A stretch of DNA of 60,097 bases, the filler included. It is 6 parts of 6 records of this genome, joined end to end, with 100 filler letters (N's around TTAATTAATTAA, not from the genome) between each part and the next. Parts side by side here need not be neighbours in the genome. Positions count along the whole stretch, not along the records: positions 30,525 to 45,012 come from SRR20825019_748; 5 more parts are not named here. One strand, written 5' to 3'. How positions within the stretch are numbered: the first letter of the stretch is position 1; the number at the start of each line of letters is the position of its first letter. The notes below the pieces were generated by a model. That model did not search any database and was not told the DNA's origin. It saw only the letters and a program-made list of their open reading frames with translations. Both the position numbers and the translations under genes were made by a program. Positions 30,425 to 59,661 of this stretch are shown here, piece by piece.

Positions 30425-30524
30425 NNNNNNNNNNNNNNNNNNNNNNNNNNNNNNNNNNNNNNNNNNNNTTAATTAATTAANNNNNNNNNNNNNNNNNNNN
30501 NNNNNNNNNNNNNNNNNNNNNNNN
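30425..30524. other. Artificial contig linker
   Basis: N44-TTAATTAATTAA-N44. Confidence 0.98.
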
Positions 30525-31534: not shown

Positions 31535-34500
31535 ATGGGGGTGGGTGCACTGACCGGGCCGGGCGGGTTCCGCACTGATGAGTCTGTTTTGTTCCAGGAC
31601 CTTTTTCAGGACGAGTTCAAGGCCAACGGTGCCAGACAGCGCAGGCGGTAGGCACTTTGCCAGACTATTCTATTAGGCGCTGATTGGTCATGCAGGTCTG
31701 TAACACCGGGCAGCCTGAACCCCGGAGGGGGCTCCGGGTCAAAAGATATTGAGCTACGCAACTTAAAGCAGGAGTTAGCGGGAATCGATGTTGATGCTGA
31801 AGTGCTACTGAACCTTGCAGTACATAAACAGATGAATCGAGCAAACCCCATGAAGCCGCCCGAGGGACCACCGGTCGAGGAGAATAGATTCAATGCCTTG
31901 GTCAACACTCTGTCGACGCCCTTTGATACGGGTAGCTATGTGATGGGCCGGCACGTGTGGGCACTGTCTAACCGTGACTTCCAGATACGTTGCAGAAGCC
32001 CATGTCCCAGAAAAAGAGGTCCAACTCCTTCTTCGAGGGACGAACACGGCGGCTTTCCCGCGACTCGACAGGCAGCAAAGGCAGTAATGACTCGGGTGGC
32101 AGCAGCGGGGGCCGCAGTGTGAGGAAGAATTTAGAGTCGGCCCTGCTGAAAACTAGGAAGAACAGATCATCCATCCTATTCGTTGGTGGTGCCTCCGTGC
32201 CGGAGTTGGGGGGCTCTGCAGGCCCGAGGCGGGAGGAGACGGGAAAGGTTTCCAAGGAGAACGGACCGGATATATCAGAGGACTTGGTCGAGCTGCTCAC
32301 TCGCCAGCACCCGTTTCTCATCAACCCTCTATCGCTGAAGTTTGTACACTCGCACTTCGAAGAGATGTATGAAAAGGCAGTGATTGAGTCCCGGCATCTA
32401 TCACTGAGAATCAGCTTAATTCTTGCTTGCCTGACGGCAGTGTTAGTTTTAGTTGGAGGCTGCGTGCGATGTACGGGGCTCCGTATCATGCAGGTCTTTC
32501 TGTCCAGCATCGCATTGGTGTTCTTGTTCCTTGCTTTGCTGGTGTTACACTGTTTTTGGGGGAAGGGCAAGCTGGTCACCAGGGTGTGCCAAATCGGATT
32601 GATAACGGGCTGGATTCTAGTAGTCATTGTTTCATACGTATTCACGTGGCATTGCGAGGACGACAACAATCCGTCGATATCATTCGATATTCTTGTCTAT
32701 GATGTACTGGTGTGGATGTGTTACGTGTGGCTCGGGATCCCATTCCGCTACGCATGGATCGGCCCCATTACATTGACCTTGCTGTTGGCCATCTGCTCCC
32801 TGTCGATGGGCGAGTTCCCTCTGGATTCGTGGGTCTATTTCGTGTTCAAGTTTTTGCTTCTAAATATGTGCGGCGCATACTTCTGCTATTTTTCCGAGCT
32901 GGAAGGGAGGAGATATATCTACACCTTCGCCATATTAGTGGAGTCTACGCACATAGTAAAATCGGAGAGTCGGAGGGCTGAAGAGATAGTGAGAGCGCAG
33001 CTGCCACCTTCCATCCTCAAGGACTTGCTTGTGTCGGCCGACAAGAAAGAAGCCAAGGACGAGGGCGGCCGGGCCCATGTGAAGTTCACTCTGGATACGA
33101 ATGGGAACGACAGCGAGGAGCTAGAGAGAAACGAGGAGGCTGGTCCTGTGACCGAGCGGGACATGCTCCATGAATGGATGTTCAATCCGCCTGACTATTT
33201 CAACTCGGTGCAAATGACATCCATCGTGTTTGTGGAATGGAGCAACTTCAGTGCAGACGAGTTTACTCCGGTCCAGGTGGCCCAGATTCTGAATGAGTTC
33301 TTCCAGGCTTTGGAAGACATGGCGGTGGAGACAGGGATAGACAAGATTAAGACGAGTGGAAACCTCTTTATGGGCATGCCCGAGATCGGGATCGCGAACA
33401 TGGTAAGTTTGGCCACAGTCATCGGGCGGGTTGCTAATACCGTGGCTGCAGACTCATCCGCATTGCGCCTGCCTCTTTGCTTCTCGCGTGCTCTCGCGAC
33501 TCGACACCCTCCGTGAAGAGATACGGCCCGATATGACCATTCGTCTCGGGCTGGCTTCGGGGCCGGTGGTGGCGGGAATATTGGGAACAGTGAAGTGGTC
33601 ATACGACGTTTGGGGTGACACAGTCAACACGGCCAGCCGCATGATGTCCACCGCGGAGCCGAATCGATGCCAGGCGGACCACAGCACGACACTTTTTGTC
33701 GAGGGAAGCATTTTCAACTTCAGCAAGAAGAGTAATGTTTATATGAAGGGTAAGGGAAAGGTGGACGCGTACGTTCTTCAACCGCCCAGTGAGGACGAGA
33801 TCTTGCAGCATCATCTGTTCCATCTGGGTGACAACAGTGGCTCCGAGGCCGAGGCTTATGATGATGGGGATCTTGTAATCGAATGGAAGCACATGACCTC
33901 AAGGACCCGAAAACGGAGCTCCTCGCCTCCCCGGGCAAAGGGTGCAAGGACCAGCTCCCAGCTTTCTGCCCCGCCCGCCCTTCACATGGGCCGGAGTGAG
34001 GATTCGCTGGAGAGAACCAAGTGCTCCTCGAGGGTAGTCTCCTGGCTTCGGCGCAGGATTACTGCCAAGACACCATCCACTCCAAATGTGCAGCTGCCAT
34101 ACACCCTAAACAAGCTTACCATGCGGTTTACGAAGGGATATGAGGAGAATTATTCCATATATGCCTTCTCAACGGGCAACAACTCCGCCCTTCGTCTGCT
34201 GTTCTGTTCAGTGATATTCGGGGGATTCTCCCTACTTTCAGGAATTGTGTTGGATAACGAACTTGATTCATGCTTGGTCACACCCGTCTGCTATGTATCG
34301 CTATGGGTTGTGCCTTTGTTCTTTGGGCCACTAACCGTGTTTATGCTGTACATATCGCTCTCTTCATATCGCTGGCACGATTGGGGCTTGGTGGTGACTT
34401 ATACCTGCATCCTCGTTGTGACACTGTACAATATCCTCGTGACGGATGAAATGATGACCAAGTACAAGCTGATCCGAACCTCAGTGACATGGACGGGTTG

Positions 34501-35629
34501 CATCCCGATCCTCCTGCGCATCCGTTACCCATACGTTGGTATAGTATACCTAATGGAACTGCTGTTCGTGTTCGTGGCTCAAGCGGCGCATGGGATTGAC
34601 TACTTTTCGTCGTATTTGACCGTGCTTTACTACATTGTGTGTTTGGGAGTGCTTGGGTACAGGACCGAGGCTCTGGGAAGGACACTGTTCATGACAAACA
34701 CTCTCCTTCTTTTCGAAAAGAAGCATATTAAGGAGGAGCAGCTGAGGTCGGTGCGGTTCCTCAACAATCTTCTCCCGCGCAGGGTTGTCAACCGGCTGTT
34801 CGAGGACATCACTGCCTTGCGGAATGATACTATCGGTCGAGAGCTGCATGTGGAGTCCATCAGTTCTTGTTCTGTGATCTTCACGGATATTGTGGGGTTC
34901 ACCCGCTTCTGCAACAATAACTCCGCCGAGACTGTAGTCAATCACCTCCATCGCCTCTTTGCTTTGTTTGATGAGTTGGCGAAGATTATGGAAATCGAGA
35001 AGGTGAAGATGCTCGGAGACTGCTATGTGGGCCTGTCGTTGTCAGCGCATGACAAGACCCACGCCGTCCGTATGATTGAGTTTGCGTTCCATATCGTCGC
35101 CGTTATTAATGAGTACAACCGCCAATACGGCACTTCTTTCCACATGAGGACAGGGATTGCGTCGGGCTCGGCGCTGGGTGTGCTGATCGGTCAGCGCAAG
35201 TTCGTGTATGATATCATTGGGGACACTGCGCAGATGGCCGCAAGTCTGGAGCAGGGAAGCCGAGTAGATGGAGTCAATATCGATTCCAACACCTTCTATG
35301 GCATGGAGTCACTGATTCCCTTGAAGTCTTCACAGAATCTGAACGCGAAGGACCACGATGAGCATATCCGCATGGCAATATATGAGATATTCCGAAAAGC
35401 GGAGCGGAATGCCTTAGCCAAGAAGCTGCTTTTGATGAAGTCCGTGAAGTACCCGTCACCGTTCGTTTTGCTGAATGGGGAGGTGATCTTGGCATCGCAG
35501 AGCCGCAAGGAGATGTCAGATGCCCAGTATGTTTCTGCCAGGCACGGCTATGGAAAGACAACGGCTCCCCCCAAGAGCGGGAGAAGAAATCTGTTCCGCC
35601 GGAAGCCCAAGAAGAAGGTGATTGAGTGA
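31535..35629 (+). CDS. Spliced 12-TM class III nucleotide cyclase (adenylyl-type); exons 31535-31647, 31696-31931, 31985-33402, 33452-35629
   Basis: Two TM clusters and two cyclase domains; three GT-AG introns (48, 53, 49 nt) with CTRAY branch sites restore the frame; start ATG uncertain. Confidence 0.85.
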
Positions 35630-36301: not shown

Positions 36302-38788
36302 ATGAAGTTGTACCGGCCTCTCGTCAACATATTTTGGAGAACAACTTTCCTCGCTGCATTATTGCTAGTTGTCGGGGCGAGCGCAGACTGTGGACGCAAC
36401 GTGGCCGATATCGTTCCCGAGTGGAACACCGCGCCGGCCAATGTTCCTAGTGATGGCGGAGTTGACGGCCCACTGTTGGGCAATGGGGGGCTGGGGGTTG
36501 TCGTTGGGGGTCCGAGTGGCGCCGGGCCCTCGGCACCTGGCGGTCTGTTGACGCTGTACGCCGGCCTGACGTCGTTCTGGGCTAGTGAGATCGATGGGTT
36601 CTCCCACTGTGGTTATGGGGACGGCGGCTTGAAGCAACCGGGCGGGATGACACTCTCGTTTTCGAACGATACCGATGTTACGTTCCATGCCCGCCAGTGG
36701 ATCAGTGAGGGCAGGGTCGAGGCGGCCGTGTCCGACGGCAAACGCACGGTCTCCATCAACATGTTCGTATCCGCACAGCACGATATAGCGCTGCTCACAG
36801 CGGCTGCGGAAGGCCCGGGGCCAATACCTGTCACTGTTACCCTGTGGACAGTGGATGGATGCGGGCTTCCCTATGAGGCAAACGAGTTTCAATCCGGCGG
36901 GCTGCATGTTCGCAGAGTGAGCGCGCGGCCATACCAAGCCGCCAGAAAGGGTGTGACGGTGACGACTGCGGACCTGGTGGCCCAGCCCATCAACTCACGG
37001 TTCGATTCGGTTGCAACCGATGGAGCAAGAGTGTCAGGCAGCATCACGATCACCCCAGGCGCGCCCGCGACCATCGCCTTTGCCGCGACTGACGGAGGGA
37101 GGGACCACGCGGCGAATCTCGTTGAGATGGCGATGGAAGATGGCGCCCCGGCCAGAATCAAGGATGAACACAAGACGTGGTGGCGAAACTTCTGGAGCCA
37201 GTCCTGTGTGGCTTTCCCCTCACAACCTACCCTCGAACGCTATTGGTACGGCTCCCAATACGTCCTCGCTCTATCCGCTCGGGAAGGCCGGACTCCACCA
37301 GGCCTATGGGGCAGCTTCATCACCTCAGACAGCCCCGGCTGGCAGGGGGATTATACCCTCAACTACAACGCACAGTCGCCATATTTCGGGGCACTGTCAT
37401 CCAACCACCCCGAGATGTCGGCTGCCCAGTTCCAGCCTTACCTCGACTTCATTTCCAACGGAAGGGATATGGCGCGCAAGTACTACGACTGTGACGGAGT
37501 GGTGTTTCCGGGGCATATCGGGCCACACGGAATGGTGTCGACGGATGTGCAGACAATGGTGAGAAACGCGAGGAAAATATGGTTGTAACATTGGCTGACC
37601 AAGTCTCTTTGACAGGGCCAACTAAGCAATGCGGCATTCGCTGCGGTGAACTTCGTGTGGCATTATGAATTCACGCGCGACAAGGGCTTTCTCGAGGAGA
37701 AGGCTTACCCGTTCGTGAAGGAGGTGGCGCTATTCTGGAGATGCTGGCTCGAGAGGAATGACACCAGGCCGGGCGAGCCGTACCGTTATGTGGACAGGAA
37801 CGACTGTGTGAACGAGCTATGTGATGCCTCGGATGGCCGGGTGACCCACAATCCCGTGATATCGCTATCCTTCATCCGCTTTGTAGTGGGCGCTGCGGCA
37901 CGATGGAGCCGCGCGCTTGGAATCGATGGTGACTTGAGGGTGGATTGGGTTGATATCGTCGAGCACCTTAGCGATTATCCGACGGCAAACGTGACCATGT
38001 CGGAGGAGGGTGGCGAGGATGAAATGCTCACGGTATTTGCCCCGTCCGAGGGGGAGGAGCCTCAGCCGCCTGGCTCCAACCCCTTTGAAGCCTACCCCAT
38101 GCACCCCGTGTCTGATGTAAACCTATCGTCCGACCGTCGCCTCATCGAGATCGGACGCAACACACTCCGCCGCCTGCAGAGCTGGGGAAGCGGCAACGCC
38201 TTCCCGCTCATATTTGCTTCGGCTGTGCGGATCAACTACAACTCGACCGAGGTCTTGGCCAATCTGCTCGCCAACATCCGTGCCAATATGGGGACTAACC
38301 TCTACTATCTTGAAGGCGGAGGGGGCATCGAGGGAGCTGGTGGCACCCTCGCGCTCAATGAGATGATGCTGCAGTCCGCCGAGGGGTTCGTTCGTTTCTT
38401 TCCCGCACTGGACCCCGCCGCCATGCCTGCGTCATTCCAAACCCTCAGGACCAAGGGCGGATTCTTGGTCTCCGCCAGCATTACTAAGGATGGGACGGTG
38501 CAGGACGTGGTTGTGGAGCGGCCCGGGCCGTCTGATTGCCACGCATTTGAGTTCCTGAGCCCATGGCCGGAACACGTGCATCCGGTGGTCACTCTTGAGA
38601 GCGGGTCGAAGCAGGTTGATGTGAAGAACCTCGGGGGTTCCAAGTATCTGATTGAACTCAATGATGGTGACCGTGCAAGGATCGCGCCAGTCATGACCGA
38701 GGGCGCGCTGCGGGGGATCATGAAGGCGGTCGGACGGGCTGATTCCGACGGCGAGTCAGCGGCGCGGCACGGAGCTGTTTGGATCTAG
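36302..38788 (+). CDS. Secreted GH95-like glycoside hydrolase; exons 36302-37558, 37616-38788
   Basis: Signal peptide; PPGLWG...WQGDYTLNYN, WHYEFT.D..FL...AYP, EMMLQS..G.VRFFPA..F.TLRT.GGFLVSA; 57-nt GT-AG intron joins the two ORFs in frame. Confidence 0.78.
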
Positions 38789-38967: not shown

Positions 38968-41052
38968 TTACTTCCTCTTGACCCCTGCCCTCGCCTTAGG
39001 GCCCCAGTTGTCAGGGTTGATCACGTATCTGGCGTGCTCCGCCTTCTTGGCAAACTGGTGCAGCGGCGTGAAGTCACAAGTAATGCTGCCGCCAGACTCA
39101 GTGAGTGAACCGACGGCACAAGAACACAAACTCACCTCGGTTCCTTGGAGAGAATCACAGTCCCAGGAGACCCCGGTTTCCCCGGCTTGACCGGATTTTC
39201 CTTCACCCAACACCTCAGCACATCCCATATGACACTGATCGGAGCATCGGACTTGATCCTGGAACGGGCGGTAAGCTGGAGCCGGTAGCGATGGGTGTGC
39301 TACTCACCCTGACGCATGGGAATACGGTTGTGTGCACTTGTACCCAAGGCGGTGGAGAGCGGATCTGTGTGGACGATGTTAGAGGCGGTTCAACGAGGAG
39401 GTGGCGCGGGTGGAATCGCACTTGAACTGGGCCAGGGAGGGCTGAACGCAATGGAGGACCTGGCACAGAGCGGGAAGGTCATAATGGAGGCTTATCTCAT
39501 GCTGCGAAGGACGTATTAGAGATTCCGGCTGAGCGGCACTAGTGTAACCCCGCCGCCAGCCCCCGCCGCCAATCCGACATGAATCGAACCCCCGACCGTA
39601 CTATCTATTAAGGAATCGCCCGCACCCACCTCATCGCGGATCATGGACAAGACGCCGTACATCTTCTTGTGGCTAGCATACATCTCCGGGTGCTCATCCA
39701 AGTAATCAATGCACCGAGAAACAAACTCGCGGTTATGAATCGGGGCGCTGCGAACGATGGTGTCAGGACCGCCGCCTAACCGCGAGTGCGTACACACCTG
39801 TAGTACGGCCCACCCACGTGGAACCGACCACCGCATTCCGAACATTTTCCATCGGTCGGGGGCCCTGTTGCCGGGCCGTACTTGAACTGATTTCCTTTCT
39901 CTGTCACCTTCCCAGCCGGCTGTTCATGGAAGGTCCCGCACCCCATGCACACATACACCGTCGCCCTCTTGCCGCAAGACCGCTTCGTCACGGAAGGCTG
40001 CGTGTACACCCGAACAAACACACGAATATAGAAATCAATGGATATGGAGATGTACGGCACGATATGACGGCCATAGCGAGTGGCACTTGTTTCCAGAGTG
40101 TGGAGGAGGATCCGGAGGGCCATCTCGTGGCAAAACTTATTTTTGAGCGGCATGCTGCCGTACTTGGCATAGCACGTCTCCGCATAGCTGGCGCAGAGCA
40201 CCTGCATGTCAGTGCAGGTGACACATAGAAGCCCTCCATCCGACACTGCCTGAACTGAGCCGTCTGCATCCACACATCAGCGCGCCGCCGCCAGCAACAC
40301 CAATCCGTGCGGCATCTTACCAATGAAGGGGACTGCAGTCCCATATGGGTCAAGGTCAATGCAGTGGAAGCGCTTATCATGGGAGCGATGCTGGTACAGC
40401 ACGTCGACTGCGTCGCCCTCGTTTGCAATAATCTGCTGATCAGTCAGCTGGTTGTGAGCCACGTTCCTCCGGATGGCAGCCACGGCCTCCTTGTCGAGGT
40501 CATTGGCAACAATGTGCTTGATGTTCTCGACCTACACGCGGAAGTCACATCGGGAGTCACGGCGCGGGCCGGGGCGGGTGCGCACCTCCTTCATATATCG
40601 GATTGCTCGCAATCCAGTAGCTGAGAGCGCCTCAAGAACGGTGATCCCTTCAAAAGGCTGCTCCTTCAGGGCGGCACTGGCAGCGGCTTCTTTCGCTTCT
40701 TCGCTCGCGTCGCCCGCCGTCCTCATCGCTGCGGGGAACCCTTCGTCACACTCTCAACAACAACAGCACGCGGGTAGCACCTACCGTGCTTGCGGACGCG
40801 TGCCTCGTGTTCCTTCTTCACATCTTCGGCGAAAAGCCGCAACACGAGGCCGGAAAGGTCGCGGTTGAAAACCTGCGGTGGGTTGTAAAAGACCTCGTTC
40901 TGTGTTCCGAAGAGGATGGAGGCCTTGCCCTCCGTGACTTCGACGTGGCCTTCAGGCACTGTGGACATGACTCGGACAAAGGGTCGGGCTCGCGGTAACA
41001 AACTAGGGCGGGGCTGGTAGAGCAAGCACCGTCCGGCCAGCGCCTTCAACAT
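38968..41052 (-). CDS. TRM1: tRNA (guanine26-N2)-dimethyltransferase, 9 exons
   Basis: VFYNPPQVFNRDLS, LEALSATGLRAIRY, IDLDPYG, GGLLCVTCTD, HEMALRILL, CxxC x2, IKSDAP, NWGPK; introns 40729-40784, 40532-40585, 40264-40320, 39748-39797, 39502-39629, 39365-39421, 39259-39307, 39086-39135. Confidence 0.93.
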
Positions 41053-41999
41053 ACCCAGTTATCACTGGAGTGCTGTGGATATATAGCACTAGGCCTCCAG
41101 CCGGCGCGACGGTGAAGTCACTGGCGCTGCCTTGCCGGCTGAAACCTCAGCCCGAGACTGCCCGTTGACGAGCTGTGGCCCTCAAGTTGGCATAGCGGAC
41201 TGACCCGGGCCGGCGGGTGGGAGCGGCCGCCGCGGCGGCGCTGGGGCGCCGGCACGGAGGCTGCAGCACCCCCGACGGCCGGACCCCGCCCGGCCCGGCC
41301 CGGCGGGGCCGCCGCACGCTAGCAACCGGACGCGCGGCGGCGCGGCGCGGCCCCGGGCGGCCGGGCGGACTCCGCGGCCCCGGCACGCCCCCCGTCCCCA
41401 TGGGTCCCCGCCGGCGGGCCGGCCGGCCGGGGCACCGCCTAGCACGTGGGGAACCGGGGGCCACGGCCGGGAATGGGGCTAACCACCAATTTTCGTCGCT
41501 CCTGACGGTAGCGGTGTGCCCTGGTCACACCCACGGCACGGGCCGGTAGATGGGCGCGGGTTTTGATTCCGTGACGGCCGGCTGGAGGAGCCGGCGCGCC
41601 TCCCCGGCCGGGGCGGCGTTGGCGGCTGCCGGGGGGGCACCAGGAGGGCGCGTCAGCTAGCACGGCGTCCCAAGCAATATGATAGTTTGCCTCAGCAGCC
41701 TGAGGCTCAGGCCAGTCCAACGGATTTGTGGGTCCCTCGTCGTCCGTCAAGAAATTGACTGATAATTTGATTTGCCTCAAGCTCGGTCCTCAGGTCGGTT
41801 CTTATGCGCACCGGTGTCATTTTGAGTTACTGGCAATGCAAGCCGGTTGGTTGCGCACGCCCAGCCGGCCGGTGATGGCAGGACGCGGGCGGGGTGAAGC
41901 TACGAACGGTCAGCCGGAGCAACCGCCCGCCGGCCCATGAGTTCTGAAATATAAACATGGTACCTCTCCACCATGCGGGTATAGTGGAGGCCGGCTAAG

Positions 42000-42989
42000 A
42001 TGGTGAAGCACTTGTCAACGAGGTTCCTGCGCTCATCCCAAAACCAGGTGAGGGCGTGTTGTGGGCGGGTGTGGGCGCGCTGACGGATAAGGCAGGGCGA
42101 TATCGACGGGAAGTGGGGCCATGATCGCTTCGAAGGAGGACGAGGCGGCGGCCGCGGCAGTCGGCGCGACAACAGCCCTGGCGACATTGATGGAAAGTGG
42201 AAGCACGATCGGTTTCACGAGGTCAACCAGGACCGTGTTGTAAGGAAGTCTTCGGGCAGAGGCGGCGGCCGGGGTGGTCGGCGGCAGGGCAACTCGGATG
42301 GACAGTGGCAGCACGATATGTATGAAGAGGAAGAGGAGGCCCCGCGTAGGAGAGGAGGTGAGACTGCTCGGTGTTTTCGGGCTGGAGAAGGGTGCTGCGA
42401 AGGAGGCGAGGGTTGATTTTCCCCGACATTTTGGTTGGGACGCCATGGTCAGTTTTTACTAACCTGAGGTGGCGCAGGAATGCGGTCAGATGGTGGTGGC
42501 GGCGGCATCAAGGCAAGGCTGGGCGAGAGAGAGGTTCGCGTGGTGGGAGGAGGCTCCGCCAACGGCGTTTTGAAGCCTCTTTTGGATCTGGGTGTTTCAA
42601 ACAAGCGCATTGTGAAGGAGCGGCCGGCGAACTCACGCTCCGCGGCGGCTGGAGCCAGGCGGGTCACAAAGGAAGCCGGCGGTGCCTCTCAGAGTCAGGT
42701 ATGCCGTCCTGTTGTGACCTCTTCAGGGCATTGGGCCAACCGTTCATATTCCGGCAGAAACTGTCCGTGCGGACACTACTGCAGTCGCTGGGTCTTGACA
42801 AGTATGTGGACATATTCGCCCGGCAAGAGATTGATATCTACGTCCTGCGCAAGGTGGGTGCACGGGGGAGGTGTGCGGCGGTTACAGGCACTGATGCGAC
42901 CGAGGCAGTTGACCGAAAACGACTTGGAGGAACTCGGAATCCCGATGGGCCCTCGTAAGAAGATTGTGGAGAAGCTGTCCCAGTTGTAA
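42000..42989 (+). CDS. WxHD-repeat / RGG / C-terminal SAM-domain protein; exons 42000-42047, 42096-42357, 42478-42698, 42758-42853, 42909-42989
   Basis: Four GT-AG introns give one open frame; SAM domain LLQSLGLDKYVDIFARQEIDIYVLRKLTENDLEELGIPMGPRKKIV; exon 2 is absent from the ORF track. Confidence 0.82.
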
Positions 42990-43102
42990 TAGCGTGGTGT
43001 GTTATAAGGTGACCGCCAGGCAACCGGGCCGGAAAGGCTGCCGGGGCCCGCTCGAAATAAATTCGAATGCGGGCAAGAGGTGATGCTGTGAGGTCAGGTT
43101 GT

Positions 43103-44863
43103 TTATGCAATCGTTGCACGGAAGGCGCCGAATCGTGCCTTGTCCTTCGGGGAGTACACCTTAGGCATACCGCCATCCAACTGGATGGAGAAGGACTTGC
43201 CGGACACGGTGACACAGTCACCGGCGTTGAAAATATTGCAGAGGACCGTGCCGTCGGCGTAGTCATTATAGGTGATGGTGCGCTGAACGGCCTCACCTCC
43301 ACTTCCAACATTGGTAAGGGCCACGAAGGTGTCGCCCCGGGTGAACGCGTAGAAGGTATCGTCAGCATACCGCTGCACCTGGGGCTCGGAGGCGAGCTTC
43401 GAGACCGCGCGGTGCTTGTTGATCGTTGCAAGGAACTGGTACAAGTCGGATGACGTGTCGAAAGAGTTCCACATCACCTCACGATTCTGGGGGTCCGCGG
43501 AACCCGCAAAGCCCTGCAAACAACTGTCAGAATAGTCATTGGTCACATCCGCGAATCGACACACCTGTTCAGAACCATAGTACACAATGGGAATTCCCAT
43601 CCCGGTCAGTACGTACAAAAGCGCGTTCTTGTACAGAACACGGTCGCCCTGTGGATCGCGGGATTAACGACTCGATGGGGACACAGACGGCAAACACATA
43701 CCTGGGAGTTGAGGAACCGAGGGTTGTCGTGGTTGTCTACGAAAGTGCCTAGAAGACTCTGGTCACTGAAGGCAGAGTATGCCTTGAGCTGCTCCTGGAT
43801 CTTGTACATGGAGCCGTGATTCTGGAACACGTCGCGGAGAGTAAAGTAGAGGGGATAGCTGAGTACACTGTTGACGGGCTGAAGATGGCGATAATCAATT
43901 ATTAATGCGATCCCGAAAACCCCAACTGTATGGCACTTACACCCTGGTAGGGCGAAACGTAGTTAATGTCGCCATTAAAAACCTCTCCAATCGAGAAAAC
44001 TCCAGCGGACTGGGTGAACTCGCTCCAGAAATCCTTGGGCACCTCGGGAACAGTATCGATGCGAATACCGTCGAACTTATAGGTGGACACAAGGTCAGCG
44101 ATCCATTTCTTGAGGCCGTCCCGGACGAAGCCGTTGGACTGGTTGAGATCTGGCCGGGCCGTTAGGTGGGACGTGATGTGACTACATGAATCTACCTGGG
44201 AGGCCGGCGAGGCGGCAAACCTCGACCTGGTTCTGGTTATTGAAATCCTCGATGTTGCACGACTGGGGGCAAGAGTTACAGTCATGATAGTGCTCAGCCT
44301 GGTTGAAAGGCGAGAGCTGGCTGAAGTCGTAACCCACGGGGCCCATGTGATTCGCTACAACGTCAACCATGACATAGACCTACAGCGCAGTTAGCATGGC
44401 CCTGCATCTAACATCACACTCACTCACTCCGCGCTTGTGGCAGGCGTCAACGAGGGACTTGAGGTCATCCTTAGTTCCAAAGTTCTCGTTGATGTCGTAG
44501 AGGTCGGTGGCCCAGTATCCGTGGTAGCCACCGTTCAGGTTCTTCACGACAGGAGAGATCCAAATGGCGTCGAAGCCCATTCCAGTGATGTAGTCGAGCT
44601 TGTCCTCAAGACCCTTAAAGGTACCGCCGCAGTAGTTTGACAGGTCCGAGCCGCTTCCGCCAGAGAAACGGTCAGTTAGTACCTGCGGGAAATCAAGTCA
44701 GGGCCGAATAGAAGTCACAGCTATAGGTTTTGAGAACCTGGTATATGGTGCGGGAGCGCCAGTCGCTGGGCGTGCCGGAGGCAGTGTATTCCACACCAGC
44801 CCATGCGGGAGTGACTGCGGCAACGGCCACAAATATACACAGCAGCGCAGTCTTGTTCATCAT
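43103..44863 (-). CDS. Secreted alpha-amylase (GH13, Taka-amylase type), 7 exons
   Basis: WRSRTIYQ/VLTDRF, GFDAIWISP, YHGYW, DVVANH, GIRIDT, IGEVF, FVDNHD; introns 44683-44737, 44380-44427, 44150-44195, 43879-43940, 43649-43701, 43514-43564. Confidence 0.93.
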
Positions 44864-44954: not shown

Positions 44955-45010
44955 GGGGAGGGGCTCCTGGGGAGGGGCTCCTAGAGAGGACGGGGGGGGG
45001 GGGGGGGGGG
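44955..45010 (+). repeat. Tandem 14-mer (GGGGAGGGGCTCCT)x2 plus poly-G at the contig end
   Basis: Units 44955-44968 and 44969-44982; G19 at 44992-45010. Confidence 0.8.
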
Positions 45011-45012
45011 CC

Positions 45013-45112
45013 NNNNNNNNNNNNNNNNNNNNNNNNNNNNNNNNNNNNNNNNNNNNTTAATTAATTAANNNNNNNNNNNNNNNNNNNNNNNNNNNNNNNN
45101 NNNNNNNNNNNN
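45013..45112. other. Artificial contig linker
   Basis: N44-TTAATTAATTAA-N44. Confidence 0.98.
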
Positions 45113-46799: not shown

Positions 46800-47912
46800 T
46801 TAGTCAGCGTGAGAGGCGGCGATTTCCTGGAACCGGTCTGTAAGGACAAGGAAGGTATCCACAATGTCGGGGTCGAACTGGGTGCCACTGCCCTTCCGGA
46901 TCTCTTCCACGGCCGTCTCGTGCGGGAAGGCGGGCTTGTAGGCGCGTTTGGAGATCAGGGCGTCATAGACGTCCGCTACAGCCATCACGCGGCCCGTAAT
47001 GGGGATATCGTCCCCTGCCAGCCCTTGCGGGTATCCTGTGCCGTCCCAGCGCTCATGGTGGGTCAGGGCAATTTCCCGGGCCAGGCGCAGGAATGACCGC
47101 TCGTCTCCCGATCCGGCAACCGTTTCCGCCCGTATCAGGGCCTCGTGGCCAAGCGTGGTATGGGTCTTCATCACCTCGAACTCTTCGGGCGTGAGACGGC
47201 CGGGTTTCAGCAGGACCGAATCCGGCACGCCGACTTTTCCGATATCGTGCAGCGGAGCGGAGCGGTACAGCAGGTCGATTGTCTCGGGTCGGAGAAAGTC
47301 CGAGAACCGGGGATGTTCCCTGAGTGCTTCCGCAAGTACTTTTACATAGTCCTGCGTGCGGCGAATATGGTTTCCGGTCTCATTGTCCCGTGTTTCGGCA
47401 AGTGACGCGAGCGCGACGATCGTGGCGTCGCGGATGGCCCTGATATCCTCCGTACGCTGGCGGACTTCGCTTTCCAGATAACTGTTCTGGTCGCGCAGCA
47501 CATCGGCGGCGCGTTTCAGCTGAAGGTGATTGCGGACGCGGGTCAGCACGATCGGGGGGCTGATCGGTTTGGAGATATAGTCCACCGCGCCAAGCTCAAG
47601 GCCGTAATGCTCGTCTTCCTGGTTGCTGCGGGCGGTCAGGAAGACGATTGGAATGTCGCGCGTGGCCGGATCCGCTTTCAGGCGGCGGCAAACCTCGTAA
47701 CCATCCATCTCCGGCATCATCACATCGAGAAGAATGAGATCCGGCTGAGGATCCGTCGCCGCTATGGCGAGGCCGCGCTGTCCGGAATTCGCGATCTTCA
47801 CCTTGTAGCGGTCTTTCAGAAGGCGGCTCATCAAAGCCAGATTGTCCGGCGTGTCATCGATGACGAGGATGGTTCTGAGGCGGGAGGTCGTATCCATCAT
47901 TCTTCCGGTCAT
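46800..47912 (-). CDS. Response regulator REC + HD-GYP (RpfG-like c-di-GMP phosphodiesterase)
   Basis: LLDVMMP receiver; [29 protein letters not shown]. Confidence 0.93.
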
Positions 47913-50900
47913 TGCCTCGCTGGAGAGGTAGTTTCCACTGCGGCACAGATCGAATGCGCCTGTTCGAAGTCGAAGCGGCCGATCGCGGCTTCGACTTCCG
48001 AGAACCGGACGCCGCCCAGAACCGGGCGCAGCGCGGCACCTTGTTCTGCCAGCACGTCCTGAGCCTCGGCATCGTCGTCCGCAAGCAGTGCGATAAGCTT
48101 GGCAAGAGCAGCGTGTCCGGCCTCGGTCGCTTCCGCCTCTATGCCGTTCTGATGATCTGGAAGAATGGACAGCTCGGCGGCTTCCAGGGAGGCCAGAACC
48201 GGCTCCAGTTCTGCCGAGAACCGGTCGAGCCGTTTCGTAATGCCGCCCGCATCCACCCGTTCCCTGATGGCCGTTTCCAGTGCGCTCGCCGCCTCGGAGA
48301 GCGACAGGGCGCCGATGTTTCCGGCGACAGACCGTGCTGTATGGGCTTCCCGCTCGGCTGTTTCAGTGTCGCCGGCCGCAAGTGCCTCCGTTATGCGCTG
48401 AACGGCTGATGACTGGCCTTCAAGGAAACGGGCAAGCATCCGGGCATATTCCTGCCGGTCCCCCAGGACCCGCTTGAGGCCAGCCTCGACGTCAATGCTG
48501 TCATGGAGGTCGAAGTCGGGACCGGTCTGGTTGTCATTGTTCTGGGGTGGCAAAGTGTGCGAAAGCGCTCCTTCAATGCCAAGAACGCGATGCAGAACGG
48601 AATAGAGAATGTCCGGGTCGATCGGCTTGGCGATATGGTCATCCATGCCGGCTTCCAGGCAACGCTCCCTGTCACCGCTCAGGGCATTCGCGGTCATCGC
48701 AACGATGGGCACCGGCCAATCCGGGAAACGCTGGCGGATTTCGCGTGTAGCGGTAAATCCGTCCATGACCGGCATCTGGATATCCATGAGGATGGCGTCA
48801 TATTGGGTGCTTTCGACGAGGGCGACAGCCTCGGCACCATTCTCCGCGATTTCAGGCATGGCGCCAAAGGCACGCAGCAGGCCGAGAGCCACGTCCCGGT
48901 TGAGTTCATTGTCCTCAACGACAAGGATACGGCGGCGGTCGAGGAACAGCGGTACAGGGCTGCTGGCGCCGGAGGGGTGTTTGGGGTCGGTCTCCCTGGG
49001 GTCATGCCGCAGGACCCGGAGCGCGGAATTGAACAGCTCGGACGGATTGAGAGGCTTGATCAGGATCTCGTCGATCCCGGCCTCTGCCGCGGCATTCATC
49101 ACATCGTCGCGGCCATAGGCTGTGGCCAGGACATAACCGGTTTTCTTGCCTGACAGGTTTTCTCGCCGCAAATGACGGATTGTTTCTATCCCGTCCATCT
49201 CCGGCATGCGCCAGTCCGCGAAAACAAGGTCGAAATGGGCGCCGCTCCTGACCAGCTCGATTGCCGCCGGGCCGTTATCGACGCTTTCGACCACGAAGGA
49301 CATCGATTTCAGCATCTCGCAAATGGCATGGTTTGCCGATGCATTGTCTTCAACGACAAGGGCTTTGCGGCCCCGGAGATCACGGCTCGCCAGGCGCTTG
49401 GTGCTCGAGCGCTCCGCCAGTTCCAGCTTGAGGTCGAGCCAGAATGTGGTCCCCTTGCCGGGCTCGCTCTTGACCCGGATGGTTCCGCCCATCATGCCGG
49501 CGAGCTTTTGCGAGATGGCAAGCCCAAGGCCGGTTCCACCAAACTTGCGCGTGGTCGACTCGTCCGCCTGCTGGAAGGACCGGAACAGCTTCTTCAATTG
49601 CTCGTCGGTGATGCCGATGCCGGTATCGCGCACGGAGAACCGCAGGAGGGCCGAGGTTTCCGATTTTTCGAGCAGTTTGGTGGCGATGCAGACTTCACCG
49701 GTTTCGGTGAATTTGACGGCATTGTTCGCCAGATTGATCAGGATCTGGCTGAGGCGGAGAGGATCGCCACGAAAATTGCGCGGCAGATCCGTCGGGACTT
49801 CAAAGATCAGCTCCAGGCACTTGGCGGCGCTGCGTTCGGCCACGACCGAAGAAATGCTTTCCAGAATTTCATCAAGCTCGAAGTCGGTCTCTTCCAGGAC
49901 AAGCTCACCGGCCTCGACCTTGGAGAAGTCGAGAATATCATTGATGATCTTCAACAGGTGGCCGCCGGACTGGTGGATCTTCCGGGCATATTCGGATTGT
50001 ATCCGGTCGAGATTGGTTTTTTGCAGCAGATGCGCCATGCCGATGATCGGATTGAGCGGTGTCCGGATCTCGTGACTCATATTCGCCAGGAACAGTGATT
50101 TGGCCTTGTTGGCGGCTTCTGCTTCCTCGCGGGCCTGGACGAGTTCGGCGTGGTTTTGCTTGCGCTCGGTGATGTCGCTCATCACGCCGATATAGAGCGG
50201 CTTTCCCTCTAGCTGGGTTTCGCTGATGGCAAGATCGATCGGCACGGGACTGCCGTCCTTGCGGCGGCCGGTGACCTCACGGCCGATGCCGATGATCTTA
50301 CGCTCGCCGGTCCGCAGGTAGTGTGCGAGATAGCCGTCATGATTGTCCGCATGCTCTGCCGGCATGATCATCGAAATGTTCTGACCGAGGACTTCTTCGA
50401 GCGTGTATCCGAAAGTCGCCGTCGCGCCCGGGGACCAGTGCAGGATGGTGCCCTGCTGGTTGATGGTCACGATGCCGGCATTGACATTGTCCATGATGGC
50501 CTGGAGGCGGGCATGGTTGGCCCGCGCATCCAGCTCCAGGGCCGCCCGGCGATCAATTTCCTGTCTGAGTTCCGAAGCTGTCTCGAACTGCCTGCCGGCG
50601 AAGGCGGCGGCCAGGGTCGCGGCACCAAAACAGACCACCAGCAGCGTGATGACAATGGCCATGGTCGTTGGATCGAGAGTGCTTTCCGTCCCGAGTACGT
50701 TGGTCAGGGGGAAGAACAGGGCTGCCTGCATCGCCGTGTAATGCATACCGGCGACGCTGCAGCCCATGACGATCGCGGCAACCGGAATGGCCAGTGGACG
50801 GAACGCATCCACGCTGCGGAGCAGGACGAGAACGCCGAGAGAGACAAAGGCCAGGACAATGGCAACCAGAACCGAGAGCGCGACCGTATAAACATCATAC

Positions 50901-51373
50901 AGGAGCATGGCATCGAGCCGCATCGCGGCCATTCCGGCATAGTGCATGGCACCGATGCCGCCGCCTTGCAGAACGGCGCCGATGGAGAGTTCGCGGAATG
51001 TGATCCTGTCGCCCCGGCTGATCACCAGCAGGGAGACCGTGCTGGCGAGCATGCCCGGCAGCATGGAGGCGAGCGTGATGAGCGGGTCGTAGGAAATACC
51101 GCAGGGCAGGGAGAAGGCCAGCATGCCGACAAAATGCATGCCCCAGATACCGCCGCCCATGCAGCCGCCACCCGCAGTCAGCCAAGCGGCGCGCGCGCGG
51201 TTACTTTTGGCTGCGGCAATGCGGGCAGAGGTCGAGAGAGCGACAATCGCCGCCATAATCGCAATGAATACTGACAGCGCCACGAGGCCGGGGCTATAGG
51301 TCCCTGGCAGGGCATTGGCTGGCTCAAAAGCCTCTTGGATCGGGGAAAAAAAACGATCGAGATACAGGTTCAT
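47909..51373 (-). CDS. Hybrid histidine kinase MHYT-PAS-HisKA-HATPase-REC-REC-Hpt
   Basis: MHFVGM/MHYAGM/MHYTAM, FixL-like [18 protein letters not shown], two receivers, AHT...GNIGA; start placed at ATG 51373. Confidence 0.92.
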
Positions 51374-51832
51374 GGCGCTCGTCAACGAAGGCGTCTTCGT
51401 GCTACGGGGCTGCTGCGTGGACTGGCGGGATAGGAGGGGAAAATTTTGACCCGGTGCCTGCCTGCTGCTGCGCTGGAAGTCTGTTTCAAAACTCCGGAAG
51501 TAGCGCGCCATATGACCGGGCCGGGCCATGCGGCTAACACTACGTGGACTCAATTCCAAATAGTTTAAGCGAAAATCCCTAATAGAGAGTTATCGGGGAG
51601 TCATTTAAATTGATCAATATCAATTTTTCTTCCCATAAAAGTGATGTTTGCGAGTGAAGGGCACCGGATACAGGGACTTAAAGTGGAGCTCTGTTGAATC
51701 GTTTCTCGTCTCCCGGTGATCCGGTCAGCGTGTTCCGGGAAAGGCTGTCCCTGGAAGTGTTTTGCCGTTGGCAATGGCGCGGCCATCCGCTAGGCAGGGA
51801 GCCGGGTAATTTCTGCAGAAAGGTTGCACCCC

Positions 51833-54165: not shown

Positions 54166-54265
54166 NNNNNNNNNNNNNNNNNNNNNNNNNNNNNNNNNNN
54201 NNNNNNNNNTTAATTAATTAANNNNNNNNNNNNNNNNNNNNNNNNNNNNNNNNNNNNNNNNNNNN
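54166..54265. other. Artificial contig linker
   Basis: N44-TTAATTAATTAA-N44. Confidence 0.98.
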
Positions 54266-54294
54266 GGTTGGGGGTTTGAATCCCTTCGCGGTCA
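54266..54294 (+). tRNA. 3' fragment of a tRNA, probably tRNA-Arg
   Basis: T-arm GGGGG-TTTGAAT-CCCTT, acceptor strand CGCGGTC-A; anticodon not visible. Confidence 0.6.
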
Positions 54295-54304
54295 CAATTA
54301 TAAT

Positions 54305-54354
54305 AAAACCACCAACAAACACTGTATAAACAAGTGTTTGTTGGTGGTTTTTTT
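54305..54354 (+). terminator. Long inverted repeat/terminator after the tRNA
   Basis: 19-bp arms AAAACCACCAACAAACACT / AGTGTTTGTTGGTGGTTTT followed by T-run. Confidence 0.75.
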
Positions 54355-54452
54355 GATTTTTAATACTATTTACAAGCCAAGAAGCTAAACCTTTTATTAA
54401 CACAAAATTAAAAGTTACACAACTGTTAATTAATAGCAAAATACATACATAC

Positions 54453-54469
54453 TAATAGTATTACTATTA
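54453..54469. promoter_or_regulatory. Probable TetR operator TAATAGTA-T-TACTATTA
   Basis: Perfect palindrome abutting a Bacteroidota -7 box TATATTTG (54468-54475), upstream of tetR. Confidence 0.65.
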
Positions 54470-54489
54470 TATTTGTGTATAATTAATGC

Positions 54490-55179
54490 ATGATGAAGGA
54501 ATTACTAAAAACACTTCAAATAAAAGTTAACGATAAAACGTATTTAAAAGATCCCGAAACATCAGATCTTGGTAAGCGTATCGTAGAGCACAGTATCATT
54601 TTAATTAATGAAATAGGCTTTGAAGCATTTACTTTTAGAAAATTAGGGCTTAAGATAAACTCAAACGAAAGCTCTATTTATAGGTATTTTGAAAACAAGC
54701 ATAAGCTCCTACTCTATTTAACTTCTTGGTATTGGGCTTGGATAGAGTATCAAATTGTATTTGAAACCTATAGCATAGAGAATAATGTAAAGAAGTTAGA
54801 GAAGGTTATAGAGATAGTCTCTAAAAAAACAGAAAACGACTCTAAGTTCTCTCATATAAATGAAATGCTTCTAAACAAAATTGTCATCAGTGAATATTCA
54901 AAATCTTTTCTGACAAAGGAAGTTGATATAGAAAACAAGGAAGGATATTTTTCAATTTACAAAAGACTCATTTCTCGTATTAAAGATTGTATTGTAGAAG
55001 TAGATAAAAACTACCCATATCCTGCATCGTTAGCTAGTACATTGGTTGAGGGTTCTTTGCATCAATATTTCTTAGCAGATCATTTTCCAACAATCACAGA
55101 TTGTAATGACGCAACAAAACCTACAGCTTACTTTTCTCATTTAATTTTTAAAACATTAAATATTAATCTCGATGAATAA
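54490..55179 (+). CDS. TetR/AcrR family regulator
   Basis: GFEAFTFRKLG...ESSIYRYFENKHKLL. Confidence 0.9.
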   Translation: MMKELLKTLQIKVNDKTYLKDPETSDLGKRIVEHSIILINEIGFEAFTFRKLGLKINSNESSIYRYFENKHKLLLYLTSWYWAWIEYQIVFETYSIENNVKKLEKVIEIVSKKTENDSKFSHINEMLLNKIVISEYSKSFLTKEVDIENKEGYFSIYKRLISRIKDCIVEVDKNYPYPASLASTLVEGSLHQYFLADHFPTITDCNDATKPTAYFSHLIFKTLNINLDE

Positions 55180-56827
55180 AGATATGACTCCTTGGCAGCG
55201 GTTTGTAAATCTGCTAAAATTAGACAAGAGAGACCTTAGGCAAATCTTTTATTATGCTATTTTCTCAGGATTAGTAGCACTTACGCTTCCGTTAGGTATA
55301 CAAGCTATTGTAAACCTTATACAAGGTGCTCAAGTATCTACATCGTGGATAATTTTAGTAATTTTAGTTACAGTTGGCGTTGCCTTTCAAGGTATACTTC
55401 AAGTTATGCAAATACGTATTCTTGAAAATATGCAACAAAAGATCTTTACAAGGTCTTCTTTTGAATTTGCATATAGATTTCCTAAAATAAAATCAAGTGA
55501 GTTTAACCACTATTATCCGCCAGAATTAGCGAATAGGTTTTTTGACACACTTACTGTTCAGAAAGGCTTAGCTAAAATTTTATTAGACTTTCCTGCTGCA
55601 ATACTTCAAATAATATTTGGGTTAATACTGCTCTCACTTTATCACCCATTTTTTATTATTTATGGCTTACTGCTCGTTATTATGGTATATGTCGTGTTTA
55701 ACCTTACAGCTAGAAAAGGACTTATATCTAGTTTAAACGAATCTAAAAGCAAGTATGCAGTTGCACATTGGCTTCAGGAGATAGCACGTTCAATTACAAG
55801 TTTTAAACTTTCTGGGAACACATCTTTAGCAATGGACAGAAATAACAAACTAACCGAGTCTTACCTTGAGTCTAGAGAAACACACTTTAAAATCTTAATG
55901 CTTCAATTTGTGCAGATGATAGGTTTTAAGGTATTGGTTACAGCTGGATTGTTACTTATAGGAGGTCTTTTGGTACTAAACCAAGAAATGAATATTGGTC
56001 AATTTGTGGCTGCAGAAATTATAATTCTTTTAGTAATTAATTCAGTTGAAAAATTGGTTACTGGTTTAGAAAGTTTTTATGACGTCTTAACTTCCTTAGA
56101 AAAAATTGGTCAAGTAGTAGACAAAGAATTAGAGTCACAAGATGGTACAAATCCTTTTAAGAGTAATAAAGAGGCCACTATTTCATTAGATAATGTGAGC
56201 TATGTTGGTAGCACTGGAGACTCTATTTTACAAAATCTAAATTTAGAATTAAATCCTAAAGACAGAGTTTTTATAGATGGTCCATCTGGTTCTGGAAAGA
56301 CAACACTATTAAAATTACTCTCAGGAATTATTGAACCCACATCAGGATCTATTTATGTAAATGACTTTAATATAAAAGGCATGCACATGAATACATACAG
56401 ATCTCAAATTGGGCAAGTATTACCAGAACAAATGCCTTTTGAAGGTAGTATTTTAGAAAACATAACATTAGGCAACACAAACATTACTATTGATAAGGTT
56501 AACCAAACCATAAGAGATGTAGGTCTTTTAGAGTTTGTACGAAAACAACCAAGAGGCATAGAAGATTTTATTTTTTCTGAAGGTCAAAAAATACCGCATA
56601 CAGTTTCAAAGAGGCTACTTATAGCAAGAGCTATAGTGCACAATCCTAAGATATTAATTTTAAAAGATGCATTAGAGCATTTTGAAGATCACGAGGCTCA
56701 AGAACTAATTCGGTTTTTATCAGACCCAAATAGAGATTGGCTTCTAATTGTTTCTGGAAAACATACCGATTGGGAAGATGTATGCAATAAGCAGCTTTCT
56801 CTACATAAAGTTAACACTTCATCTTAA
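55172..56827 (+). CDS. T1SS-type ABC transporter (TMD+NBD) with degenerate NBD motifs
   Basis: 6 TM, IGQFVAAE, Walker A GPSGSGKTT; signature and Walker B altered. Confidence 0.88.
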   Translation: MNKDMTPWQRFVNLLKLDKRDLRQIFYYAIFSGLVALTLPLGIQAIVNLIQGAQVSTSWIILVILVTVGVAFQGILQVMQIRILENMQQKIFTRSSFEFAYRFPKIKSSEFNHYYPPELANRFFDTLTVQKGLAKILLDFPAAILQIIFGLILLSLYHPFFIIYGLLLVIMVYVVFNLTARKGLISSLNESKSKYAVAHWLQEIARSITSFKLSGNTSLAMDRNNKLTESYLESRETHFKILMLQFVQMIGFKVLVTAGLLLIGGLLVLNQEMNIGQFVAAEIIILLVINSVEKLVTGLESFYDVLTSLEKIGQVVDKELESQDGTNPFKSNKEATISLDNVSYVGSTGDSILQNLNLELNPKDRVFIDGPSGSGKTTLLKLLSGIIEPTSGSIYVNDFNIKGMHMNTYRSQIGQVLPEQMPFEGSILENITLGNTNITIDKVNQTIRDVGLLEFVRKQPRGIEDFIFSEGQKIPHTVSKRLLIARAIVHNPKILILKDALEHFEDHEAQELIRFLSDPNRDWLLIVSGKHTDWEDVCNKQLSLHKVNTSS

Positions 56828-56837
56828 GATTATATAT

Positions 56838-58181
56838 ATGCTTAACATCTCACATAATCAGCTTAACAAAAAGGTGAATTTGTCTAAATATTCAGCGTTT
56901 ACAAAGGCGCATCATATAAGGCATTTTAAATACTTTAATCAGTTTCTGTTCACCTTTGCAATTATAGGCATCATTATTCTATTTTTACCTTGGACGCAGA
57001 CAGTTACAGGAACAGGTGCAGTTACCACACTCACACCTGAGCAACGCCCACAAACTATACAGTCTCCTATTCCTGGTCGTATAGAAGAATGGTTTGTAAG
57101 AGAAGGAGATTACGTAAATAAAGGAGACACAATTCTATTTATTTCTGAAATAAAAAATGAATATCAGGATCCTAACTTAGTATTACGAACAAAGGAACAA
57201 CGTGATGCAAAGACAAATGCACTAACCTCATACAAGGAAAAAGTAAAAGCATTAGACAATCAGGTTTCTGCACTAAGAAGCGAACGTCAATTAAAAATAG
57301 AACAAGCAGAAAATAAATTAAAACAAGCCCAATACAAGGTTAAAAGTGATAGTATAGATCTTATTGCTGCCAAAACCAATAAGGATATTGCAGAGAAACA
57401 ATATAACCGAACGGTAACCTTGCAGGAAGAAGGACTAAAATCTACTGCAGATGTTGAAGACAAACGCTTAAAACTACAAGAAACAGAAGCTAAACTTATT
57501 AGCCAAGAAAATAAACTTTTAGCTAGTAAAAACGATCTTATAAATGCTCGAATAGACATAACACGTACCAGTGCAGAATATGCAGATAAAATTAGCAAAG
57601 CACAAAGCGACAAGTACACGGCATCTTCTGCACAATATGATACAGAGGCACAAATATCAAAACTTGAAAATGCTTCAACCAACTATGAGTTAAGGGATAA
57701 AATGAGGTTTATCCTGGCGCCTCAAAATGGATACATTAATAAAGCTATTAGAGCTGGTATTGGTGAAACATTTAAAGAAGGTGAACAATTGGTTGGTATT
57801 ATGCCATCAGACTATGATTTAGCTGTAGAAACCTACGTTGCACCTATTGATCTGCCTCTAATTCATGTAGGAGAACAAATACGAGTGCAGTTTGATGGTT
57901 GGCCTGCCATTATTTTTAGCGGTTGGCCAGATGCCTCTTTTGGAACTTATGGAGGAAAAGTTGTCGCGGTTGAAACATTTATAAGTCCTAACGGAAAGTT
58001 TAGAGTCCTAATAGCTCCAGATGAAACAAAGGAAACTTGGCCAAAAAATGTTAGGGTTGGTTCTGGCGCACGCACCATAGCACTGCTAAATGATGTGCCT
58101 ATCTGGTATGAATTATGGCGGAAAATTAATGGGTTTCCACCAGATTATTATACCCCAAAAACTGCAACTACATCTAAATAA
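56838..58181 (+). CDS. HlyD family membrane fusion protein
   Basis: LPWTQ, SPIPGRIEEWFVREGD, coiled coil, APQNG, FDGWP. Confidence 0.92.
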   Translation: MLNISHNQLNKKVNLSKYSAFTKAHHIRHFKYFNQFLFTFAIIGIIILFLPWTQTVTGTGAVTTLTPEQRPQTIQSPIPGRIEEWFVREGDYVNKGDTILFISEIKNEYQDPNLVLRTKEQRDAKTNALTSYKEKVKALDNQVSALRSERQLKIEQAENKLKQAQYKVKSDSIDLIAAKTNKDIAEKQYNRTVTLQEEGLKSTADVEDKRLKLQETEAKLISQENKLLASKNDLINARIDITRTSAEYADKISKAQSDKYTASSAQYDTEAQISKLENASTNYELRDKMRFILAPQNGYINKAIRAGIGETFKEGEQLVGIMPSDYDLAVETYVAPIDLPLIHVGEQIRVQFDGWPAIIFSGWPDASFGTYGGKVVAVETFISPNGKFRVLIAPDETKETWPKNVRVGSGARTIALLNDVPIWYELWRKINGFPPDYYTPKTATTSK

Positions 58182-58193
58182 ATTTTAAATCGC

Positions 58194-59603: not shown

Positions 59604-59661
59604 ATAACAGTATCTAAAAGCACCACTTAAACACACTCGTTATTACTCTTATATTTACAGT

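Follow-up and report, generated by a model that had tools for sequence, protein, structure and literature searches.

A spliced and expressed eukaryotic gene joining three WxHD motifs, RGG boxes and a C-terminal SAM domain: a candidate multivalent scaffold for exon junction complexes

The sequence contains a eukaryotic gene of five exons that is TATA-driven, spliced and expressed. Its product of 235 residues carries three tandem WxHD motifs of the kind found in ALYREF and CASC3/Barentsz, two RGG boxes and a C-terminal SAM domain. The likeliest reading, to which we give a probability of about one half, is that the protein is an RNA-binding scaffold that would dock on eIF4A3 and the exon junction complex (EJC) at several points and oligomerise through its SAM domain. 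The mechanism is drawn from the defined role of the motif, the conservation of the repeats and the precedent of the plant protein SAM8.

The coding parts of the five exons (42000-42047, 42096-42357, 42478-42698, 42758-42853 and 42909-42989, plus strand) join to 708 nt (235 codons plus the stop codon), and all four introns run from GT to AG (Table 1). Transcript data were assembled contigs of two runs, X1 and X2, from one sample of one study, the kind of run not being on record; such contigs prove presence only, and the region aligned was 41500-43300. Within this region all four predicted joints were seen in contigs of X1 and X2, and there were no other joints. A contig of 779 nt spans 41981-43032 with all four introns removed, with no differing letter and no gap, and two contigs of the other run have identical joints. 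The two 5' ends seen (41981 and 41986) bear a loose GTACATGGG(G), with which the SMARTer template-switch oligo ends on its 3' side in PMC9245221. This identifies the contigs as cDNA and their ends as cDNA 5' ends, likely corresponding to capped 5' ends. The ATG at 42000 is the only one within 41981-42010, and the longest cDNA contig has its 3' end at 43078.

The preliminary description had proposed that splicing of four GT-AG introns gives a protein of about 235 residues. The cDNA contigs bear this out: the four introns are skipped in both X1 and X2, exon 2 is joined to the SAM exons, and the frame of 235 codons remains intact. It had also been correctly observed that the frame of exon 2 lacks a start codon. 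This frame (42084-42416) reproduces letter for letter the peptide strings first quoted for the gene, and its first Met appears only from the third motif on. Such genes, with no start codon in the key exon and a SAM domain interrupted by an intron, escape a prokaryote-style view of open reading frames.

Table 1. Features of the WxHD/RGG/SAM gene. Positions count along the whole window; residue numbers refer to the spliced product.
Feature	Position	Strand	Evidence or remark
TATAAA box	41950..41955	+	sequence; 31-36 nt upstream of cDNA 5' ends
Exon 1: 5' UTR and first 16 codons from ATG 42000	41981..42047	+	cDNA ends, oligo tail
Intron 1, 48 nt, GT..AG	42048..42095	+	absent from X1 and X2 contigs
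Exon 2: residues 17-103 and first base of codon 104; three Btz-type WxHD, two RGG boxes, acidic patch	42096..42357	+	Pfam PF09405 Btz
WxHD motif 1, WGHD within GDIDGKWGHDRF	42114..42125	+	ALY 1no8/3ulh alignment, E about 1
RGG/RG box 1, residues 30-40	42135..42167	+	RGG at 32, RG at 32 and 36
WxHD motif 2, WKHD within GDIDGKWKHDRF	42198..42209	+	Btz E 4.3e-4, 20.9 bits, profile 95-114
RGG box 2 (di-RGG), residues 70-79	42255..42284	+	RGG at 71 and 75
WxHD motif 3, WQHD within DGQWQHDMY	42306..42317	+	Btz E 4.5e-4, 20.9 bits, profile 92-114
Acidic patch EEEEE, residues 93-97	42324..42338	+	directly after motif 3
Intron 2, 120 nt, GT..AG, phase 1, holds TACTAAC	42358..42477	+	sequence, cDNA
Exon 3: residues 104-177, Gly-rich basic linker; IKARLG 42507-42524	42478..42698	+	no family match
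Intron 3, 59 nt, GT..AG	42699..42757	+	sequence, cDNA
Exon 4: residues 178-209, N-terminal half of SAM domain	42758..42853	+	SAM_1 profile 7-34
Intron 4, 55 nt, GT..AG, phase 0, splits SAM domain	42854..42908	+	sequence, cDNA
Exon 5: residues 210-235 (C-terminal SAM half), stop 42987-42989, 3' UTR	42909..43078	+	SAM_1 profile 37-63, cDNA
AATAAA	43056..43061	+	sequence, in 3' UTR of exon 5

The window, that is the whole stretch of 60,097 nucleotides that was analysed, consists of six contigs separated by spacers (44 N, TTAATTAATTAA, 44 N) at 13985-14084, 21477-21576, 30425-30524, 45013-45112 and 54166-54265. The gene sits on the fourth contig (30525-45012), the only one of the six with a eukaryotic look. 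The other five carry uninterrupted bacterial-type genes, among them LysR, hydantoinase A/B, aldehyde dehydrogenases, TsaD, HemC/HemD/HemY, ABC transporter parts and cytochrome b/c1. The window is thus a mixed assembly, and it tells nothing of how intron-dense the eukaryote is outside this gene. Of the earlier suggestion of an intron-dense genome, the part that stands is this one gene with its four introns; five of the six contigs are bacterial and have no further bearing on it.

Among the bacterial contigs, the region 54266-60097 has a GC content of 32-34%, compared with 52-67% elsewhere in the window, and is probably from a different organism than the other contigs. Its genes (a TetR-like regulator, an ABC transporter with membrane domain, an HlyD-type fusion protein and an outer-membrane efflux protein) have the look of a bacterial export system. 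On the minus strand, positions 47909-51589 hold an open frame of 1226 residues with MHYT repeats, PAS, HisKA and HATPase domains, two receiver stretches and Hpt, a hybrid sensor kinase; a protein with a receiver and an HD domain (46800-48362, minus strand) adjoins it.

The neighbours on the eukaryotic contig include, on the plus strand, an open frame of 740 residues with two adenylate/guanylate cyclase catalytic stretches (33407-35629) and a GH95 catalytic domain that extends over two adjacent frames (36302-38788), a split that suggests an intron or a frameshift. The first exon of a TRM1-like gene (N2,N2-dimethylguanosine tRNA methyltransferase; 40723-41058, minus strand) is divergent from the SAM gene. 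The spacer of about 1 kb between the two (41100-41650 region) is very GC-rich with CCGG-type runs, and the long open frames on both of its strands are probably compositional. Downstream and convergent with the SAM gene lies a GH13 alpha-amylase with an A_amylase_dom_C domain (43085-44354, minus strand); the cDNA contigs of this amylase stop at 43085 and 43087, 7-9 nt from the cDNA end of the SAM gene. The amylase gene probably has introns, since its catalytic part is found in pieces in different frames; an Atlas search with an amylase exon gave mixed bacterial and fungal clusters, from which no taxonomic assignment could be drawn. The contig terminates in a run of about 18 G (44993-45010). Such G runs, where a contig ends, arise as an artefact of two-colour sequencing instruments.

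In the Pfam scan of exon 2 the only family matched was Btz (PF09405), with an E-value of 2.3e-9 and a score of 38 bits, above the gathering cut-off of 22. The match consists of three stretches confined to profile positions 85-113 of 131, and positions 1-84 are unmatched in exon 2, so that the whole SELOR profile is not covered. In CASC3 the part covered by these positions holds the other patch contacting eIF4A3 and RNA. When the motifs were scanned singly against Pfam, motifs 2 and 3 each came just below the Btz cut-off (20.9 bits), and motif 1 gave no match. Motif 3 and its acidic tail align to the WEHDKF stretch of human CASC3 in the EJC crystal entries 2hyi, 2j0u and 3ex7 (E 0.13-0.54). The phmmer matches to PDB chains, with E-values of 0.13-1.2, are not significant alone, yet they are consistent, and the likeness to CASC3 and ALYREF is one at the level of the motif only.

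The motifs are unlikely to be a product of chance. Among the 120,190 residues of the six-frame translation of the window, the pattern W.HD is found four times, three of them in this exon of 87 residues; the Poisson probability of at least three in 87 residues is about 6e-11. Each of the three repeats has the shared residues G, D, G, W, H and D and, two places past the D, an aromatic one. The form G-[KQ]-W-x-H-D-[RM]-[FY] stands three times in tandem, interleaved with the two RGG boxes. Over the 12-codon core GDIDGKWxHDRF, repeats 1 and 2 have four identical codons, seven synonymous ones and a single residue change, which falls at the free position x. That is how an old duplication within the gene looks when purifying selection on the peptide has kept it.

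The WxHD motif was defined in ALYREF, BTZ, BCLAF1 and THRAP3, and binding to eIF4A3 is reported to be abolished by the BTZ mutations W218D and HD220AK and by the change of WQHD to DQAK in ALYREF; the ALYREF mutant also loses binding to CBP80 (PMC4797287). In cryo-EM the motifs of ALYREF and CASC3 sit in the same mode on RNA-bound EIF4A3, the WxHD region of ALYREF suffices for reconstitution with the EJC, and one ALYREF bridges three EJCs, an example of multivalency (PMC7614608). These two sources agree with the role first ascribed to the motif, that of docking ALYREF and CASC3/Barentsz on eIF4A3. The naming of NCBP3 as a further carrier is not supported as it stands: NCBP3 is reported to bind CBP80 through a Trp-containing helix (W581) that is not called WxHD in the available text of that source (bioRxiv 10.1101/2023.07.25.550453), and the WxHD passages of PMC5095910 and PMC6675937 make no link between NCBP3 and the motif. 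The Trp-binding pocket of CBP80 is used by NCBP3, NELF-E, PHAX and ZC3H18 (bioRxiv 10.1101/2023.07.25.550453), and the mode in which WxHD binds the cap-binding complex (CBC) is described as uncharacterised (PMC11405014).

Residues 1-177 contain 35 G, 26 R and 15 S and match no family except for the Btz motif; the part carrying the WxHD motifs and RGG boxes is disordered-looking, and exon 3, the Gly-rich basic linker, matched no Pfam family. RGG occurs at residues 32, 71, 75 and 102. The protein is basic, with a pI of about 10.3, and its net charge per 20 residues swings from +6 to -6 as basic RGG blocks and acidic blocks alternate.

The two halves of the SAM domain are encoded by exons 4 and 5, which match positions 7-34 (E 1.4e-4, 22.6 bits) and 37-63 (E 2.7e-5, 24.9 bits) of the 64 positions of SAM_1 (PF00536). 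The halves were scored separately, each close to the cut-off of about 23 bits. They are contiguous in the profile, and together they give a match along the full profile; since the phase-0 intron between them is spliced out in the cDNA, intron 4 splits one SAM domain. The reading of the first TTG of exon 5 as M is an artefact of translation table 11. For both halves the nearest solved chains are those of BICC1, tankyrase, ANKS3/6, ANKS4B, SARM1 and caskin; the BICC1 SAM domain (4rqm) was found at E 0.0039 with exon 4 and at E 1.4 with exon 5. The SAM domains of BICC1, tankyrase, ANKS3/6, SARM1 and caskin are self-associating. An acidic E-I-D in the middle of the domain and a basic R-K-K at the start of its last helix are present here as in BICC1, tankyrase and ANKS3/6, and by analogy with these domains we infer that this one would self-associate head to tail. 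The resemblance is confined to the SAM domain: the remainder of these proteins (KH domains, ankyrin repeats, PARP) is unrelated, and the E-values of the half-domains are weak.

The domain content given in the preliminary description, namely three WxHD motifs, RGG boxes and a C-terminal SAM domain with no RRM, is thereby recovered, the last point resting on a Pfam scan of four exon translations in which no RRM was found at E up to 10. In addition, no UAP56-binding motif (SLDD/E or LDxxLD, cores as given in PMC4797287) was seen by eye in the translation of 235 residues.

The gene product also has features of three further known systems. The closest precedent is Arabidopsis SAM8 (At5g23680), published in 2026, which was the one relevant system found in the literature on EJC, eIF4A3, Barentsz or Btz together with a SAM domain; we take the relation to be one of analogy. 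SAM8 is described as having disordered regions, a negative patch beside the SAM domain and the SAM domain itself at the C-terminus (PMC13421324). Its SAM domain is oligomeric, of the head-to-tail kind, and becomes monomeric when R280, R281 and K282 are changed to Glu; the protein is nuclear, binds EIF4A3 and ALY1-4, excludes UAP56, and forms condensates that keep mRNA in the nucleus under hyperosmotic stress, and homologues are reported in land plants only (PMC13421324). As in SAM8, the protein encoded here has a C-terminal SAM domain after long disordered regions, an acidic patch, and a basic triplet on the end helix, with R-K-K at the position where the SAM8 paper places R-R-K (PMC13421324). 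The acidic patch adjoins the SAM domain in SAM8, whereas here EEEEE (93-97) lies 80 residues before the start of the SAM domain at 178, and the 20 residues that precede the domain have a net charge of +3 in place of a negative patch. Furthermore, the accessible text of the SAM8 paper describes no WxHD or RGG (PMC13421324).

In CASC3/Barentsz/MLN51 (PF09405, SELOR) the order W-x-H-D-basic-aromatic followed by an acidic stretch is the same, and the Pfam score is above the cut-off. Unlike CASC3, the present protein has the sub-motif only (profile 85-114 of 131), in three copies, within 235 residues that also include the RGG boxes and a SAM domain. CASC3 proteins have roughly three times this length and are not known to carry a SAM domain. 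Since the first 84 profile positions are unmatched, this is not a full CASC3.

The protein is like ALYREF/REF in having WxHD within disordered sequence beside RGG-type stretches that bind RNA, and its motif 1 can be aligned to ALY. Multivalent bridging of EJCs by ALYREF is also the principle proposed here (PMC7614608). The multivalency would in our case stem from three motifs and self-association of the SAM domain, not from RRM surfaces; without an RRM, the protein is not ALYREF.

Searches for relatives used single exons as queries, which are short and low in complexity, in collections that are poor in eukaryotes, so that blanks are weak evidence. Exon 2 gave 5448 candidates among longer proteins, with none at E up to 0.01 and none at E up to 10, and had no match among 1.84 billion representatives at E up to 0.001; exon 3 gave 2133 candidates and no relative. 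Of 600 pattern matches in metagenome contigs and 600 in prokaryote genome contigs, none was confirmed. A degenerate DGKWxHDRF pattern found 13 loci, which we attribute to chance: all 13 have a single motif in unrelated frames. The best Atlas look-alikes scored 0.86, 0.80 and 0.79, all below 0.9, and are leads only; ranks 2 and 3 are Btz clusters. The combination of WxHD repeats, RGG boxes and SAM domain was thus not found elsewhere by the searches run. The architecture had at first been called unrecognised, and this holds insofar as single-exon searches retrieved no relative, but Arabidopsis SAM8 (2026, PMC13421324) comes close.

In the mechanism that we propose, each WxHD motif would dock on the eIF4A3 of an RNA-bound EJC, as in CASC3 and ALYREF, and may additionally touch the cap-binding complex, while the RGG boxes would hold RNA and the SAM domains would join one molecule to the next, head to tail. 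One oligomer would then offer many EJC-docking sites, and spliced mRNPs would be clustered or compacted by it. The clustering may be constitutive; alternatively, the protein may form a condensate that sequesters EJC and export factors, like plant SAM8. More tentatively, it is possible that the protein represents a new class of mRNP organiser, small and RRM-less, in which three WxHD clamps and SAM polymerisation would stitch neighbouring EJCs together, and which may be a non-plant counterpart of SAM8.

Other explanations bear on the nature of the gene and on the partner of its motifs. That the frame is a chance product, a pseudogene or an assembly artefact, rather than a functional gene, would agree with the lack of relatives in database searches; it is highly improbable in view of the cDNA-type contigs, which carry a template-switch tail and show all four GT..AG joints exactly, the intact joined frame, the two family matches in the right order and the synonymous-only divergence of the repeats. 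The protein might instead be a reduced orthologue of CASC3/Barentsz, the fourth core subunit of the EJC, in which the motif that binds eIF4A3 has become threefold and a SAM domain has been gained. Btz is indeed the sole family matched by exon 2, above the gathering score, it accounts for ranks 2 and 3 of the Atlas search (0.80 and 0.79, as leads), and motif 3, the acidic stretch and the A-P-basic residues align to the same run in human CASC3. Against this, the match is to profile positions 85-114 of 131 three times over, a sub-motif and not a domain, the searches with exon 2 returned no CASC3 protein up to an E-value of 10 and nothing among the 1.84 billion representatives at E up to 0.001, and both the length and the SAM domain set the protein apart from CASC3 as noted above; we consider such an orthologue unlikely.

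A rather doubtful possibility is that the WxHD motifs bind a partner other than the EJC, for example the cap-binding complex, or serve mainly as aromatic and charged stickers in an RNA-granule scaffold of the RGG/SAM type. The loss of CBP80 binding in the ALYREF mutant (PMC4797287) and the shared Trp-binding pocket of CBP80 (bioRxiv 10.1101/2023.07.25.550453) favour the former, and the alternating charge blocks together with the SAM domain would suit condensation; yet it is on EIF4A3 that the extended consensus, with its aromatic residue after HD, has been defined structurally (PMC7614608), and no binding mode of WxHD on the CBC has been characterised (PMC11405014). The protein could also be a distant member of the plant SAM8 family, condensing upon stress so that EIF4A3 and ALY are sequestered and mRNA is held back in the nucleus; the motif by which that family docks would thereby come to light. 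The two proteins share their layout and size class (residues 280-282 of SAM8 are in its C-terminal SAM domain, compared with 235 residues here), and a disordered region, an acidic patch and a C-terminal SAM domain are common to both, with EIF4A3 as a partner of SAM8; a phosphopeptide of SAM8 that starts with L-G after a tryptic site is compatible with the R-L-G of IKARLG, a weak lead. We nevertheless judge membership of the SAM8 family improbable, given homologues reported in land plants only, a patch next to the SAM domain there and 80 residues upstream here, and a paper in whose accessible text WxHD is absent and 'motif' occurs only within 'sterile alpha motif' (PMC13421324). Nor does the neighbourhood give a sign of a plant: the adjacent amylase has an A_amylase_dom_C domain, and the sole eukaryotic Atlas cluster with that domain is listed as Ascomycota. 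The reading as an eIF4A3-docking, SAM-oligomerising scaffold is the one that we retain.

The compaction of EJC-marked mRNAs and their selection for export are under active study. In human cells this is done by ALYREF with a single WxHD motif and RRM surfaces (PMC7614608), and in plants SAM8 captures EIF4A3 and ALY by a route described as undefined (PMC13421324). Three WxHD motifs and a SAM domain in one natural protein would be a minimal and testable design for the multivalent clustering of EJCs, and the protein could show what recruits EIF4A3 to SAM scaffolds. If it is a non-plant counterpart of SAM8, docking of the WxHD type would be the way in which SAM scaffolds capture EIF4A3.
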